64,000 bases of DNA from Octopus vulgaris (Eukaryota), in the NCBI GenBank assembly GCA_951406725.2, contig OX597824.1, positions 47,678,001-47,742,000 on the forward strand. The letters are read 5' to 3'. The notes beneath the pieces are model-generated. The model was not told the origin of the DNA. It did no database searches and worked only from the letters and a program-made list of their open reading frames with translations. This document shows, one piece after another, positions 28,478 through 39,300 of the stretch (position 1 is its first letter; each line of letters starts with the position of its first letter). A program made the translations under genes and the position numbers.

Positions 28478-28693
28478 ATGGATTCTTGCTCAATGTGTGG
28501 AAAGCCAGTACTGCTCACATTACTTTTTGTTTGTGTCTTTGGGTTGATCAAAATTGAAAATTTAGATGTGAACACTTCTTTTGTCCAGAAAGCAGCTAAT
28601 TATGCTGTTTCTCATATTATTTGTCCATGTGCAATAAAGAATAATGCATATTCATCTCTCCATCTTACATCAGTTGTGGAAGCACAAAAATGG
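28478..28693 (+). CDS. Secreted double-cystatin-like protein, exon 1 (signal peptide + helix VQKAANYAV + VVEAQKW)
   Basis: Hydrophobic N-terminus LLTLLFVCVFG, cystatin-type 'LDVN..VQKAANYAV' helix, TGG|GTCAGT phase-0 donor. Confidence 0.75.
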
Positions 28694-31600
28694 GTCAGTA
28701 TTTTGTTCTTGTTATTCTTTTAGAAGATAACTTTTCCATTTTTGTTTTTGATTGTTTAATTAAGTTTTTTTTACATGGCAAATTTGTTTCTTTTGAATGA
28801 TATTTCAGAGATAAGATGCCACCTTATGTTTTCGTAATGAGTGGTTACTTATAAAAACTTTTATTCCAATGTTACATAGATATGTATGTGTATATATGTT
28901 TCTTTTTAAGTGTTTGTGTGTCCATATGTATGTATATTTGTCTGTCGACTATCTATCTATCTGTCTATCGAACTATTAATCGCTCTCTCTCTCTCTCTCT
29001 CTCTCTTCCTCTCCCTCTCCCCCTCTCTCTCCCTAGTTGTCTGGCTGGCAGGCTGACTCACAAGGCTAACTGGCTGACTGACTGACCAGCTGGCTGGGTC
29101 TGGATTTATCCTTAGAGTTGACTCTCAGTCTTTCTCATGGATGAGTCTGGCCACAAGGTAGCAGAAGTTTCAAATCAGAACTTCTCCTCTCCTAAACGAA
29201 CAGTCTTTCTAATCTGATGGATTTGTTCTGTCCAAAATAATTGTTCATGTTGCAGAGAACACTTTCTCCTGTCAGTAGTAGAAAAGGTAAAGACAAAGAT
29301 AATTTTTGTTATAGCCATCAATCCAGGGCTTGGAATCTTGTGTGTACACACATACACATGCATACACACACACACACATTAAAAGTTACGTTTTCACTTC
29401 TTCACTCATCTGAAGAAGTTTCTGTTTTTGTACATTCCTCAAGGCAATATGTGAGGTTACAATATGTTAGGTTACTAACTCCACAAAATTTTATTCACTT
29501 ACCTAATTTCCTGAAATTAATCAGTGGAAGATTGTACTAATAACCAGTATGATTAAATATATATTTTCACTGAAGGATATTCTTTTACTAATGTTCCTGA
29601 TTATATTTCTTTAATAGTATTGTTACAGTTGGGTTATTAGAAGTTCTTTTAGTGTAGCATAGATCTTCATTTGGTTTTCTTTAAAGATGCTACTTACCAA
29701 GTCTAAAATAGTTAATGGTGCTTATGTTAGTTTTTATGATAACTTTTAGGTTAAACTAGCAAACACACCCATCCTTTGGGCGGTTTAAGTTGCTTTCGTG
29801 ATATTTTTTTCACCAAATAATTGAACTACCGAGAAGGTTTATGTGTAGCATGGCAATCTGTTTCCGATTAACCTAGGAACGGAAAATCAAATTGAAGGCT
29901 GGTTATTGTGGAGGTCATTGCACTTTGATTATCATAGAACATATAAGTTTGCAAGCGATGTAAAGTAGAACTACTGAAGTGTTTGGGGAGTAGATTACGG
30001 ATAATGACTACAAAATATAGTTGTTTTACATGAAAGTGAAATTTCTTGTCAGAAACAGCCACATAAATGGTGTAAGGAAATTGAAGGAAGATGTTGAAAC
30101 TTCCTCTCTGTGAGTTTATTTTTTTCAACAGCAAAGGGAGCTATTTTTTTCGGAGAGAAAAGCTAACAAAAGCCCCTTTATTCTATCTTCCCACATAGCG
30201 TACACATAAACTAACAGTGAATGCTGCATAAAGTTAAATTGGTATGGAGCTTCCTGAAAGATACGGATAGCTTTTGCTAGTGGAAGCAAAGGTTGATTCT
30301 TTGGGATGAATCATATGTGAGTGTTTAAAAAAAGGCTAGAATGACAATGTTAAAACCTATTTGAAACAATGAACAGCAGTCGAAATATCATAATGGCTGG
30401 GTAAAGAAGTATCCTTAAAGTGAAACAACAGTATCAAAGGTTAAAAAAAAAAGGTATCAACAATCAGAAGAGAGGGAAGGGAACATCACTTTTCAAGTAA
30501 CTCAGAATAGGTAAAGGTAAGCTTGCCAAAGTTTAATGCAGTTTCAATATGTAGATTAAAATAGTTTGGTATTGGATATTCATCACGTATAGTTTTCCTA
30601 GTCAACTGAATCACCGTCGTAAGTGGACAGCAGAAATAAATAGACGAAATCCTTTCACTTTTATAAAAAGATTAAATCGAAAATGAGGGCAATGAAAAAT
30701 CATTTCCTAGTAGCTGGAATTTCACGACAAAATGTATGTTTATTAAGCACAACAGCCTGCAGTGCATGCCACTGGGCATTAAAAGCCAACCGCACAAACC
30801 TAGAGGGGATCTGGGCCCTCTTGAATCGATAAAAAAATCACTCTTTTTGCCATAGCAACCACATCTTTATAGCTTGCAAATTTTAACCATTGTGGGTCTC
30901 ATCCTCACCATGCATTTAGTATCCCTGCCAATTAATCATCAAAGCAAAATGTGCATACAATTTTTGTCCAAGGACTGTTTTATAGATATAGATTTCTTTA
31001 ATTCTATTCAATTTTTTTTTTAGTTTTTAAGCTGTAATCATTTATGTAGCTTAAGATTGCAGGCCTGTCATCTATGTATAGTCTAGAGTGCTGAATCTAT
31101 TTCCAGGCATATTCAGGTTCAGCAATTCACCCTTTTAGCCTATATATCAGCAATTGCTTATACTGATAAGAAAATAGCTCATCACCTGACTTTTTTATAC
31201 TCAGAATATCATCAAAGACATGTCATGTCAAGCCTAAAATTTATTCTGTTAGATGTAACAGTTAGTGAGTATTTTCCAAACAGCATACCAAATGAATACC
31301 TTCTCTATCGTCATCGTCCTCCTCCTCTTCTTCTTCTTCTTCTTCTCGTTGTTATCATCATCATCATCATTGTCATCAACATCATCACCACCACCACCAT
31401 CATCATCATCAGACATGTTCCTCATGGAAGATTGGAAACTATTATCATTTTGTTTGATGGTGAAGCTTATTTACAGCCACCATGTGATGTCAAGTGAAAT
31501 CAACTTATAGCCATGAAATCATTCATGAATTGAGGGAGAAACTGTAAAAACAATAGAAAGATAAGAACAAAAAAACAGAAAAAAGAAAAATCACCTTGTT

Positions 31601-32636: not shown

Positions 32637-33810
32637 GTATGTATGGGTTCTTTCTGTTGTTAATCTCTCAGAATATTCCAGAGGTAGTGGTATAGTAGAA
32701 ATGGTTGTGCATGAGACCAAATACTTTCGAAGATGCCATTGGTTTATGTTTTACCAACATAACTTTGACTTTCGTCATTTCAAAAGATCAATAAAAATCT
32801 TTTACTTGTTTCAATCATTAGACTACGGCCATACTGGGACATCGCCTTGAGGAATTTTTAGTCAAATGAATCCATTTTTTAAGTCTGGTACTTATTCTAT
32901 CGATCTCTTTTGCCAAACTGCTAAGTTACAGGGATGTAAACACACCAACATTGGTTGTCAAGTGGTGGTGGGGGACAAGTACAGATACAAAGACACATGC
33001 ACACACACATACATGCACTTATATGTGTGTGTGCGTGCGATGGATTTCTTTCAGTTTTCGTCTACCAAATCTACTCACAGGGCTTTGGAACTGAATCCAG
33101 AGCCATGTGGTTGGGAAGCAAGCTTTTTACCATGCAGTCATGCCTACCTATGCCTATAGTAAGCATCAATTATACACAGGAGTCATTTCAATCTAGAAAC
33201 ATTTGTTGCTTTGTGATTTTAAAATAATTCTTTCAGAGAAAACTTTGGTGACCTTTATTCAAGCAATCTATGTAAAAGAGACAACCAGTTAGTGCATTGC
33301 AAGTAACCAATATTCTTGGGTTTACTGTATAGGATATGGTGTACATGTTCTAAAACTAAGATATAAGAGCAGGCACGTCTGTGTGGTTAAGAAGTTTGCT
33401 TTCCAACCATATGGTTTCAAGTTCAGTTCTATTGCGTGCTAGGTGTGCAAGTCTCTCCTATTATAACTCCAGGTTGACCAAAACCTTGTGAGTGGATTTG
33501 GTTGATGGAAACTGAAAGAAATTTGTTTTATAAATAAGCTTGCCCATTCGATGAAGGGATATAATAAATATCCTGGAATCAGCTGTAAGACATTCTATTT
33601 ATAAATGTTCTAAAATCTTCACTGCCTCGATTTTTTATCTCATTCTGAAAAAAAAACATTTTTATATATACACACACTGATATATGACCTACGTTGGACT
33701 CCTTATTTGCATAATCACCAAACCTGGAGCTTAACTATGGTCTATTCATAGCATTTACTCAGCATTACCTGACACCTTTGGGTCTTACTGACACCATTAT
33801 CTCTCATAAC

Positions 33811-34893: not shown

Positions 34894-35115
34894 TATGGTC
34901 ATGAATGTACATTCTACCTGAACATCTACAATGAGACTAATTTTACCTTGGAAAAGTACACCTGCTTTAAATATGTAACATCAAAAAGTAAAAAGATTCC
35001 AGCACCTTCCATCAATATCAAACGGCATGAGATACAATCCCTAAAGCCATTCTTGAATATGTCTCTGAAAAAATATGATCGCAGATTGGTTAAAATTCTC
35101 AAGGCTTATAAAAAG
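34894..35115 (+). CDS. Double-cystatin-like protein, exon 3 (YGHECTF...YTC...VKILKAYKK)
   Basis: TTGCAG acceptor, AAG|GTAATC donor, 222 nt, phase 0-0. Encodes the C-terminal disulfide hairpin of domain 1 and the start of domain 2. Confidence 0.75.
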
Positions 35116-35274
35116 GTAATCTTTTACTTATTAAGAACACTTAGGGAAAATATAACCACTACAAATTCCTGTTTCCTTTCCTGTTTATCTATGGTGGTTC
35201 ATGTTTATATAAGAAATCATCTTCATCATTATCATCACCATCAAAATTTTCTATTCCTGCTTAAATATGGATGT

Positions 35275-35613
35275 TCTGTTTGAACAAACATTACTGTGGT
35301 AGATACCATGAGAGAGACTCTAAGATTAGCTTTTGGTGCAAAATGCATTCTTGTTTATATTGCTAGTGAGGAGGTAAACCCCACCAACTCCAGTGCCGAG
35401 ACCATCAGATCATGTGATTTCAACCTCCCTTGGTCTCATCTGTGATGGATGCTTGATCACTAGAGATAGCAATGACTCATCTCCCTACCAGCGATATATA
35501 GAAAAATTATCTCCCTACTTGCGATAAAAACTAGCAGCATATTTTGCACCAAAAGCTTATATGAGAGTTTCTCTCATGGTATCAACCACAGTAAAGTTTG
35601 TTCTAACTGAAGA
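35275..35613. mobile_element. Foldback/MITE-like element with ~95-bp imperfect inverted arms enclosing the hammerhead
   Basis: GAACAAACATTACTGTGGTAGATACCATGAGAGAGACTCT..AGCTTTTGGTGCAAAAT versus ATTTTGCACCAAAAGCT..AGAGTTTCTCTCATGGTATCAACCACAGTAAAGTTTGTTC. Confidence 0.75.
35402..35448 (-). ncRNA. Degenerate minimal type I hammerhead ribozyme motif
   Basis: Minus strand reads CCATCA-CAGATGA-GACC AAGGGA GGTT-GAAA-TCACATGA-TC-TGATGG. This gives stem I, a CUGANGA-like core (one mismatch), stem II, GAAA, a near-palindromic stem III and an AUC cleavage triplet. Confidence 0.7.
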
Positions 35614-36039
35614 TCATCATCATCATCATCATCGTTTAACGTCCGTTCTCCATGCTAGCATGGGTTGGACGGTTTGATCGGGGATCTGGGAAGCCAGAAG
35701 GCTGCACCAGGCTCCGGTCTTATCTGGCAATGTTTCTACAACTGGATGCCCTTCCTAACGCCAAAGATCCATGTTTAAATGGGAATAAATATTATCTCTC
35801 AGTATTAATATTTCCTCTGTTGCTAATATATTTTTCATAAAAATTTTGGGGAAATGCTTTGCTGTTATTATTCCAAATCTTTATAATATGAGTTAAAATC
35901 CTTCTGAAATCAGTTTTGCTTTTCATCCCTTTGGGGTTGATAAGACAAAGCACTGGTCATATATTGTGGTTGATATAATTGACCAACCCTCTCACAAATT
36001 GCTGGTCATATGCCTAAATCAGAAACCATTATTATTATC

Positions 36040-39000
36040 ATCATCATTTTTTCAACTTAGGTTCTGTTGGAACTCCTAGAGTCTTGCATGAGTACTGGGC
36101 AGGCTGCCTACAGTCTACAGTACAATGCTATCTGTTCTCTCTAACTATATTATACTTTCCTGATGATTCTGGCCATGCCAAGAAAGCAAACTTTTTGCAA
36201 CAGTGCAGCTGAGCACTATATTCCTGTTTCCTTTATATTCTTCTTAACATCTCCTGAATTTGTCCTTAAGGCCCCAACAATAATAGGCACTATCTTCACC
36301 TTTTTCATTTTCCACAGTCAAGTTATTTTGTATTTAAGAAGATTGTATATATGTCTATTTTTTTTGCCTTCCTTCTTAACTAATCATGAGTCAAAGAGGT
36401 TTGCAACATCAATTATAGAGCATATATCATTTACCTTGTCCACCACCATTAGGTCCAGCTTGTTTTGCTGAAGTACATAATCCATTTGGATTGGAAAATC
36501 TCTCAGGATTTTGCAGGTCTCTGATTCAACCACTCTCTGGTTTGTGTTTGTATCACATCTTGCCTCTCTCTAATCCTCAGTTTTCAGTTTCCAGTGTAGC
36601 AGTCTCAATGCCCTATCATGTCACCACAACTTATATTGGTCTTGGGCAAATTGAGGCCATTCATTCTCAGTATAAGTAATGGTTTTATCAAATACATTCC
36701 AAATTTGGCACAATGGAGACACTTGCTTATTCCTTAGATTGACCCTCCAATTTGTGGCCAAAGCTTGGTCTTGCATTGCAAGTATAGTACTCTCAGCCAC
36801 TTTTTTATGTGTTCCTTGCTTTAACCAGTCTCACCTATGTTCTCCAGCAGCTTCAGTTGTGACTATGTGGAATTGAGTAGGGCTTCTTCATGTCTTCTTG
36901 TTTTGTTCTTTTTTTTCCCATTCTACAATATGCCCTCCTCTCTAACTGCCACTTTGGGTTAGATATCTCAGCAAGTTCCCATGTTCAATATGCATGCAGT
37001 CTTCCACATTTATCAGTCCCCTTCTTACATTTGTTCTCTTAATATATAGACAATCAATGTCTGCACATGGATGATGGGTTCCAAGCAGGGTTAGGAGCTT
37101 TCTTGTCTTCCTGTCCAACTCCTTTTGCTCATTTTCTGACCACTTCAGAATTCCAGATCCATACTGAACCACTACAACTTCACGTGAGTTTATTGCTGAA
37201 GTTATATTTCTGGCATTCAACTTTAAATTCATATCTTTCTCAATCACCAAAGATACCCTTTCTTTGTCTTTTCTTTCATATCATCATGCTTAATTACATC
37301 TGCCTCAAGTATTTTCAAATATTTATATTTAGATTCAGGTTTAATTGCCTTCATCATTTCACCACTTGATATACATATACCTTCTGTTCTGACAAACTTT
37401 TCTCATCTCATCACAGTTACAGCACATTTTGGAAGTCCAAATTCCAAGTCTTCACAGACTGGACTAGACTGTTCAGTTCTATCTAAGTTTTTGTGAACAA
37501 CCTCAAAACATCCATAAATAGCAGGTCATTAAGCTTTCCTTTACCACTTTCCAGATCATACACCAACTTTGTCTTCCACAGTATTTCACTCAAGGGAATT
37601 ATTCCCAGCACAAAGATCAATGGGGATACACTGTTCCTCTGAAAGATCCCTCTCCTAATTTTCACTTCTCCTTACACCTGATTCTCTGCTGTCAATTCAG
37701 ATCTCCAAAATTTCATACTGTTCCATATACGGTTTCTCATGTCTTCTTTTACTCCATACATTTCCATAGTTCTTGTTATCCAAGAGTATGATATCATATC
37801 ACATCCTTTATGATATTCAGTCCATGCCATGCTCAAATTTGTGTGCCTTCTCTTGCAATTTCTGATGATTAGCTTGTCAATAAATAGCTGATCTTTCATT
37901 CTCTGGCTCTTTTTTTGATACCCATTCTGTTCAATCAGTAGCAGCCCACGTTTTTCAAAGTATCCATACAATTCACTGGCTAAAACACCTGAGAGTAGCT
38001 TCCACATTAGCAGAAGTTGGTTGGAAGTTGGATACTTGAAATATAGCTGAGACCAACAAGATTATTAGGGTTGCAGTAATGAATGGAAACATAAAAATAA
38101 GGCTGGAAAGAACATATATAATAAAAGATAAAGGATATGTTAAGATCTTTGATGCATAACATTGTCTTTCTTTTTGTTATCTAGCTGGGCACTGAGCCTT
38201 CCTGCAAGCACTTATCCATCTATTCTGCTATCCTTTCATGGAGTCCTCCTAGTTTCTTCATCCAATATCCTTGGACACCATCTGGCCTTGGGTTCTTCCA
38301 ATTTGGTATTTTACTTATGTCTTTTTATCATTTCTGTTTTTGTTTTTATGTTGTCTTGACCTATTTTCTTAACCTATTTTGGGTTGCATGCAGTCACTCT
38401 GCATTATCATTATGCTCTACAGGTTGATCCCAGATTCCCCACCACCACCAAAAAGCTTTAGATACCAATGTTGGGTGTAATTGTCCATCTAATTCCTCAA
38501 ACAGTTTTCTCTCATTGGATTCATATAATTTGTTCTGCCTCAATTGTTTTGTTCTATTGTCATATCTTTCCTTTTTTGCCTTGATTACTACTGCTCTTTG
38601 TTTCAATTTTTCCAATATTATGTAAAATCCTTTATTTTTTATTCTATATGTTCTTATTTTTATGTTTTCATTTTTGCTGCAACCCTGATAATCTTGTTGG
38701 TTTCAATTATATTTCCCATCTGAAATTGTCAAACAACAGTATTGTTTTTTTCCCATTTCTGTTTTTAGATTGGGAAGTGTATGATCCTGGCCTTCTCTAA
38801 TATATTGGCATGTTATCCTCACAATATCATGTTGATCATCATCGTATAGCTCTTTCCATTACTTCTGCTTAATTTTCTGGCAATCCATTTACATCTTGCC
38901 CTACATTTTCACAGTCACTGTTCATTTCTCTGTCCTTAGTAGGCACGCTATTTACTGGTGCAGTATTATCTTTGTTTTCTATTTGCCTTTTTATTTCTTC

Positions 39001-39300
39001 AATCTCCATGTCTGTTAACCACCCATTTGTTCTTATTGCTCTTACCTGATTGACTAACTATTGCTCACTAATCTCAAAGAGTACTATTCCATTTTGATTT
39101 CATGCATTTTCAAACCCCCTTCTACTGGGTTCACTTCTGATTCAGCACTCAATTACTGTTCAATTTACCTCCTTGTCCCATCTTTTTCTCTGCTTCTATC
39201 ATTAAGTATAAGCTCTCTCTGAATGACAACCATGCCTGTGCTGCCCAACCACATGACACCTGCTGAGTGAAAGACCTTCACCATTAGTTCCAGCCTCATT
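36040..39300 (-). mobile_element. Degenerate R4/Dong-like LINE
   Basis: Broken RT (GIFQRNSVSPLIF; LLFMDVL), ELDRKTRKLL and RLE remnants. Confidence 0.75.

Follow-up and report, generated by a model that had tools for sequence, protein, structure and literature searches.

The foldback-like element in the window, i.e. in the whole 64,000-nt stretch of Octopus vulgaris contig OX597824.1 that was analysed, is most probably (about 80% by our estimate) a decayed, 5'-truncated non-LTR retrozyme unit to which part of a second copy is attached in inverted orientation. Its insertion was likely the work of a reverse transcriptase (RT) and endonuclease borrowed from an element of Penelope type.

Structure of the insertion and its surroundings

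The initial annotation placed the element at 35275-35613 and described it as ~95-bp inverted arms around a loop with a hammerhead ribozyme motif. The arms were confirmed (75 nt at 88% without gaps; about 109 nt in a gapped alignment of 35270-35377 with 35506-35615). The whole element spans about 35252-35843, since the right arm resumes past a nested insert. Its parts are as follows.

35252..35506, minus strand: 5'-truncated sense copy of a 354-bp unit (unit 48-303), 256 nt aligned with the family consensus at 90% identity
35350..35498, minus strand: predicted long hairpin extending stem I (unit about 56-111 with 147-200), z = -3.08, 0 of 200 shuffles as stable
35402..35448, minus strand: type I hammerhead motif of C3-G8 form; changes are U4-to-A (35441), G10.1-U11.1 and a disrupted palindrome in stem III
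35448-35443, minus strand: stem I of the hammerhead, 5' strand
35442-35436, minus strand: hammerhead core, A at position 4 being 35441
35435-35432 with 35425-35422, minus strand: stem II, 6-nt loop
35421-35418, minus strand: GAAA
35418-35409, minus strand: stem III
35408/35407, minus strand: predicted cut, after C at 35408
35407-35402, minus strand: stem I, 3' strand
35507..35615, plus strand: part one of the inverted partial copy (unit 178-285), 109 nt matching at 86%
35616..35763, strand not given: 148-bp piece of a very abundant repeat with no relation to the unit, nested in the inverted arm and splitting it
35764..35843, plus strand: part two of the inverted partial copy (unit 280 to unit end), 84-86% identity, carrying a ~40-bp tail

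The inverted copy meets the sense copy 5'-to-5' at 35506/35507 with zero gap, and what had been taken for a loop is that part of the sense copy (unit 48-177) which is missing from the inverted one. The sense copy finishes at a short 3' end, without a tail. The nested fragment lies between the two copies of a 6-bp direct repeat (35610-35615 and 35764-35769). In a run that bears the label of another organism, one contig crosses the inversion junction (35407-35603, 14 differences), so the insertion is likely older than the split from that organism. Elsewhere in the window there is a second pair of inverted arms (33044-33088 and 33478-33522; 45 nt, 87%, with 389 nt between them), and on the minus strand of 36384-39057 broken reading frames are seen which by eye resemble a decayed LINE-type retrotransposon.

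Exon-like frames were found on the plus strand at 28478-28700 (with a hydrophobic N-terminus) and at 34930-35115, the second of them stopping at a GT donor (35115/35116). The proposed position of the element, antisense in an intron of a cystatin-like gene, was supported in its orientation: the ribozyme is antisense to the exon-like frame ending at 35115. The cystatin label found no support, as Pfam gave 0 matches for the 2 candidate exon frames. In a plus-strand host transcript this copy would stay uncut, the ribozyme being a minus-strand feature. The window copy is likely an inactive relic, with no sign of host function.

Hammerhead motif of the window copy

A type I hammerhead descriptor with one core mismatch allowed registered a single site in the 64-kb window and none in each of 20 block-shuffled windows. 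This site is the minus-strand motif that had been claimed at 35402-35448, with the letters as they had been read. An Rfam scan gave no hammerhead family at E<=10; its 8 other matches were all far below the gathering score. The core substitution that had been reported as the only one, U4-to-A, is present and is accompanied by two more departures, namely G10.1-U11.1 in place of G-C and the break in the stem III palindrome, both located at sites of CpG decay. The core of the window copy is, therefore, not intact, and its A at position 4 occurs in only 1 of 113 monomers of the family. A U4-to-A change would cripple the hammerhead core, and this copy of the ribozyme is likely inactive. Stems I and II nevertheless form in the centroid fold, and the outer helix of the long hairpin recurs in the alignment fold of 46 copies.

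A dispersed family of 354-bp units

Searching the 2.8 Gb genome with the window element gave 109 matches from 40 scored candidates. Nearly all of them consisted of query positions 108-339 plus a separate match to one arm, not of the whole foldback, and alignment of the copies revealed a 354-bp unit in head-to-tail repeats. The genome-wide search and consensus that had been suggested for the element thus recovered a dispersed non-coding hammerhead family. Its size was estimated with a 19-place core pattern, which has at least 166 exact matches genome-wide (a lower bound for the family) versus 0 for the reversed control. Among 90 loci, each read 1.5 kb to either side, 45 are longer than one unit, 14 exceed 1.5 units and 5 exceed 2 units; the longest measures 806 nt, or about 2.3 units, and no long tandem array was found. 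Two hammerhead regions are present in 28 loci. Six-frame translation of the unit gave no long open reading frame (ORF), its GC content with CpG restored is 46%, and as regards a Pol III promoter the consensus has neither a B box nor a strict A box. The notion of a small non-coding mobile family with a hammerhead is therefore well founded: there is no ORF, the copies are dispersed, and the family form restores the core.

All copies are old. Outside CpG sites they differ from the consensus by 10% in the median (range 5.5-18%, n=100; 8.6% for the window copy), and the 20 CpG sites of the unit are largely decayed. Three different query copies found no near-identical relatives (best matches 85%, 79% and 89%), and the CpG-intact form of the inferred core pattern has 0 exact matches in the genome. 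With this zero and with best matches of only 79-89%, no young source copy was found, and since the copies are about 10% diverged, the family looks extinct. Contigs of 3 presumed RNA runs (their RNA nature was guessed) contain divergent pieces of the family only, and a raw-read run of 2026 gave no match to it. At two loci, L139 and L140, the same changes at core position 4 and in stem II recur in three copies of the hammerhead, and it is possible that they represent a ribozyme-dead sublineage that still got copied.

Conservation and folding of the ribozyme

The type I core was tested as C3-G8 or U3-A8, U4 G5 A6, A9, G12 A13 A14, A15.1-U16.1 and H17. The family form has this core conserved: among 113 monomers U4 is kept in 106, G5 in 104, A6 in 110, A9 in 111, A13, A14 and A15.1 in 107 each, U16.1 in 95 and C17 in 100. 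Loss of CUGANGA/GAAA from the consensus, named in the initial annotation as an outcome that would speak against the ribozyme, was not observed. Variation at C11.1, G12 and the centre of stem III follows CpG decay. It points to a source element whose closing pair was G-C and whose stem III held a palindrome of 10 nt without any mismatch. According to calculation this palindrome self-pairs at -12.9 kcal/mol and has no fold alone, in line with its supposed suitability for dimer pairing. Helix I has 6 bp, helix II has 4 bp and helix III can form 3 bp, with no extra base after position 9. Minimal hammerheads of Penelope-like elements (PLEs) are described with a 7-8 bp helix II, one additional base following position 9 and a helix III that is tiny or missing (PMC4209133), so the term “minimal” applied earlier to the octopus motif is not appropriate in its published PLE sense.

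Across the alignment the hammerhead structure (three helices, helix I open) pairs 91.9% of 643 cells versus 21-47% when it is slid. Stem covariation, the other safeguard named at the outset, is essentially absent: two-sided changes were registered in 2 of 13 stem pairs, in one sequence each, and decay of the copies has been neutral. Clear two-sided change is limited to the 3-8 core pair (12 two-sided cells). Core and stems passed the intactness filter in 19 of 90 gap-free copies, 9 of which have G10.1-C11.1.

By minimum energy the consensus core prefers an alternative pairing (-11.0 vs -9.1 kcal/mol), and RNAalifold likewise picks a non-hammerhead core. The 5' core strand (unit 108-116, window 35446-35438) resembles the stem III palindrome (unit 136-145, window 35418-35409) and can pair with it; the resulting fold, predicted to be inactive, could damp cleavage within the circle. 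As to the loop 1-loop 2 tertiary contact of type I hammerheads, an internal loop is predicted in the extended stem I, and the consensus circle is predicted to be strongly self-paired (z = -9.3 with CpG restored). The family hammerhead is predicted to cut itself.

Two forms of the 3-8 pair coexist in the family. In a hand tally of the first 100 of at least 166 core-pattern matches, U3 was found in 78 and U3-A8 in 60; in the 46-copy set U3-A8 accounts for 25 copies and C3-G8 for 12, the window copy belonging to the C3-G8 minority. In U3 copies, positions 7-8 are CA in 51 cases and TG in 10, whereas 18 control CpG sites decayed evenly (152 to 142; p = 3e-6). Given this excess of CA and the fact that several U3-A8 copies retain most of their other CpGs, A8 was likely present in a source element. 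A 2x2 test of position 3 against position 8 in the first 100 of the at least 166 matches (60/18/14/8) was not significant (p = 0.27). A set selected on the 3' end gave 11 U3-C7-A8 copies against 8 with U3-U7-G8, and in a third set, which overlaps the earlier ones, the ratio was 13 to 3 among U3 copies and 4 to 7 among C3 copies. The core switch to U3-A8 may be called supported, albeit not clean. U3-A8 is a known active pair of natural hammerheads (PMC3088659; PMC4209133), described for example in Schistosoma Cercyon (PMC4209133). The family offers natural C3-G8 and U3-A8 ribozyme forms for a side-by-side assay.

Inverted copies and the insertion footprint

An inverted partial copy is present at 34 of 116 loci, while 82 have no inversion. 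All 34 opposite-strand junctions are divergent, none is convergent, and they use 34 distinct breakpoint pairs, so that terminal inverted repeats are not a fixed feature of the copies. The initial annotation regarded the long inverted repeats as a part of the element, as in a foldback element or MITE. This view fails, and judged by the junctions the fold-back arms are a by-product of insertion. At the outer ends of the 34 inverted insertions a tail is combined with a short end in 23 cases and with another tail in 1, short ends never occur on both sides, and in 10 cases one end is ambiguous; the tail is one-sided, therefore, in 23 of the 24 insertions with both ends readable. Most 3' ends (94 of 122) fall into two clusters about 40 bp apart, and the 5' ends are scattered. 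No consistent target duplication was found in 51 simple insertions, and inspection by eye of the outer ends, in 15 inverted insertions and in the window copy, gave none of fixed length. Pieces starting within a few bases of the cut site numbered 0 of 131, 4 of 43 (p = 0.07) and 1 of 29 in three sets, and 5 of the 29 pieces of the third set begin at unit 131-149. At three loci (L177:1092-1706, L141 and L159) the inversion junctions lie at or beside the stem III palindrome, which may promote fold-back during reverse transcription.

Insertions of PLEs are described in PMC8557442 as truncated at the 5' end and partially tandem, with a copy inverted on the 5' side and a tail of 30-40 bp that is often confined to one end. 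The octopus family shows this footprint in each of its parts.

Penelope-like elements of the genome

Young PLEs are present in this genome. They encode a 765-aa ORF with RT and GIY-YIG domains, are 98-99% alike and have tandem repeats in both untranslated ends. A young autonomous family with an intact ORF is located at L136:1754-4051 (G000:C4), L134 and L135, and the search returned many 781-codon open frames. In all three PLEs fetched a hammerhead-like motif with U3-A8 lies near the 3' end, and one of the three (L135) has the same 5' inversion as the 354-bp family. The suggested comparison of the element with Penelope sequences, made for the 354-bp unit at the DNA level against 30 GIY-YIG loci and 3 full PLE regions, gave no meaningful similarity. 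An ORF with RT and GIY-YIG adjoining the repeat was found at 0 of 116 loci within 1.5 kb and nowhere in the window; the PLE ORF protein likewise had 0 tblastn matches in these 90+26 = 116 loci within 1.5 kb. The mechanism of insertion looks PLE-type, though the unit resembles no compared PLE of the genome. Other hammerhead-like motifs, not related to the 354-bp unit, were noticed on the minus strand at L092 near 26, L077 near 2571 and L085 near 249 (oriented coordinates); one of them combines a U3-A8 core with a palindromic stem III, and all three probably represent further families.

Proposed cycle and alternative explanations

Extended from the retrozyme model (PMC7229834) for the steps from transcription to reverse transcription of more than one unit, the following cycle is conceivable. 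A source locus with two or more units would be transcribed, and its hammerheads would cut after AUC, probably with help from dimers formed through the stem III palindrome. A host ligase would circularise the released monomer. A PLE enzyme would then prime at the AT-rich unit junction and copy up to about 2.3 turns, often stopping early; a second priming event or a template switch would produce the inverted arm, and staggered resolution would leave the ~40-bp tail at one end. Copies longer than one unit cross the cut site, so either a circle or an uncut multimer was needed as a template, and an uncut linear multimer predicts the same tandem copies as a circle does.

One alternative is that the unit spread from uncut linear read-through RNA in a SINE-like manner with PLE enzymes, the hammerhead being an inert passenger that never made circles. 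For a passenger speak the alternative fold, which competes with the active core, and the 5' ends, which show no exact accumulation at the cut site. Against it, the core is complete in the family form and occurs both as C3-G8 and as U3-A8 (12 and 25 of 46), a sign that catalysis may have been under selection in the source elements, and we consider the passive spread unlikely. Somewhat less credit still can be given to the assumption that the unit is the 3' end (pseudo-LTR, pLTR) of an old autonomous PLE and that its copies are ordinary 5'-truncated PLE insertions. The same footprint would be expected from them (PMC8557442), Xenopus retrozymes are described as derived from pLTRs (bioRxiv 10.64898/2026.07.22.740005), and the copies examined were the best-scoring few dozen of each search. 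Against it, long copies continue upstream into a preceding unit rather than into an ORF, and the PLE protein matches none of the 116 loci. The helix sizes are canonical, unlike those of PLE minimal motifs, and only 6 pairs among 89 5' flanks have junction sequence in common; the three flanks inspected differ in junction position and look like another common repeat.

MITEs and foldback elements have fixed terminal inverted repeats and a fixed-length target duplication. A DNA transposon of this kind, with its terminal repeats around the hammerhead, is suggested by the about 109-bp arms of the window copy, but it was rejected and deserves hardly any credence. Arms are absent from 82 of 116 loci and have different limits in all 34 others; they consist of internal unit sequence, tandem copies are common, and no fixed target duplication was found. 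The initial proposal of a PLE-mobilised foldback or retrozyme-like element survives, therefore, in its retrozyme part and, likely, in mobilisation by PLEs, and is given up as to the foldback. What looks like a MITE in a genome of this kind can be a retro-insertion with an inverted part.

Under the preferred reading, a decayed retrozyme unit inserted with PLE enzymes, the family acquires a broader meaning. In PMC7229834 and bioRxiv 10.64898/2026.07.22.740005 the enzyme that mobilises animal retrozymes is only proposed, and the PLE footprint on a protein-free family, including one-sided tails in 23 of 24 readable inverted insertions, supports PLEs in this role. Tentatively, and with somewhat more doubt than confidence, the family may be viewed as the fossil trace of a rolling reverse transcription in which PLE enzymes copied RNA circles made by hammerheads, in which case the one-sided tail and the variable inversions would be sequence-level evidence for this partnership. 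The same tentative view includes a compensatory switch of the catalytic pair from C3-G8 to U3-A8 within one lineage, possibly via U3-G8, towards the core of the young PLE of this genome.

Comparison with known systems

MITEs and foldback elements share with the family only the superficial likeness of arms around a short non-coding loop; they differ from it in their fixed terminal repeats and fixed target duplication, while the family has truncation of retro-type. Endonuclease-bearing (EN+) PLEs, as described in PMC4209133 and PMC8557442, are similar in 5' truncation, partial tandems, the inverted 5' copy, the 30-40 bp tail at one end and the hammerhead near the 3' end. Unlike them, the family has no RT/GIY-YIG ORF, and its hammerhead lacks the traits of the PLE minimal type.

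The closest likeness is to metazoan non-LTR retrozymes, whose units measure 350-390 bp in mussel and 330/350 bp in axolotl (Cervera and de la Pena 2020, PMC7229834). A non-LTR retrozyme is recognised by tandem units of 150-450 bp, each with a single type I hammerhead, by no protein coding and by GC below 50%, and the 354-bp unit has all these properties. Such retrozymes are further defined by the lack of an LTR, a primer-binding site and a polypurine tract, by expression as linear and circular monomers, and by target duplications that exceed 4 bp where there are any; among the 51 simple insertions of the octopus family no duplication was consistent. By the account given in PMC7229834, the two further share a hammerhead of canonical size, a short palindromic helix III, a self-paired predicted circle and co-occurring PLEs. 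The octopus family differs in that the copies seen reach only about 2.3 units, are dispersed and old, and have U3-A8 cores in their majority. Its frequent 5' inversions with a one-sided tail are absent from the descriptions of retrozymes that we drew on in PMC7229834.

Retrozymes are argued to be non-autonomous PLE derivatives in a recent preprint (Li, Clavereau and Pollet, bioRxiv 10.64898/2026.07.22.740005). Element class and proposed partner are the same as here, and solo decayed monomers and intronic copies are reported there to be common. As far as the preprint describes it, the evidence there is co-occurrence and similarity to pLTRs, mostly in vertebrates, whereas here the link is the insertion footprint and no pLTR relative was found. 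The words “octopus”, “tail”, “mollus” and “cephalopod” have 0 occurrences in its main text. Among the papers listed on octopus retrozymes or on octopus hammerheads and Penelope no description of the 354-bp family was found, although supplements may hold one. The element class as such is already described, and the 354-bp octopus family is its further representative.
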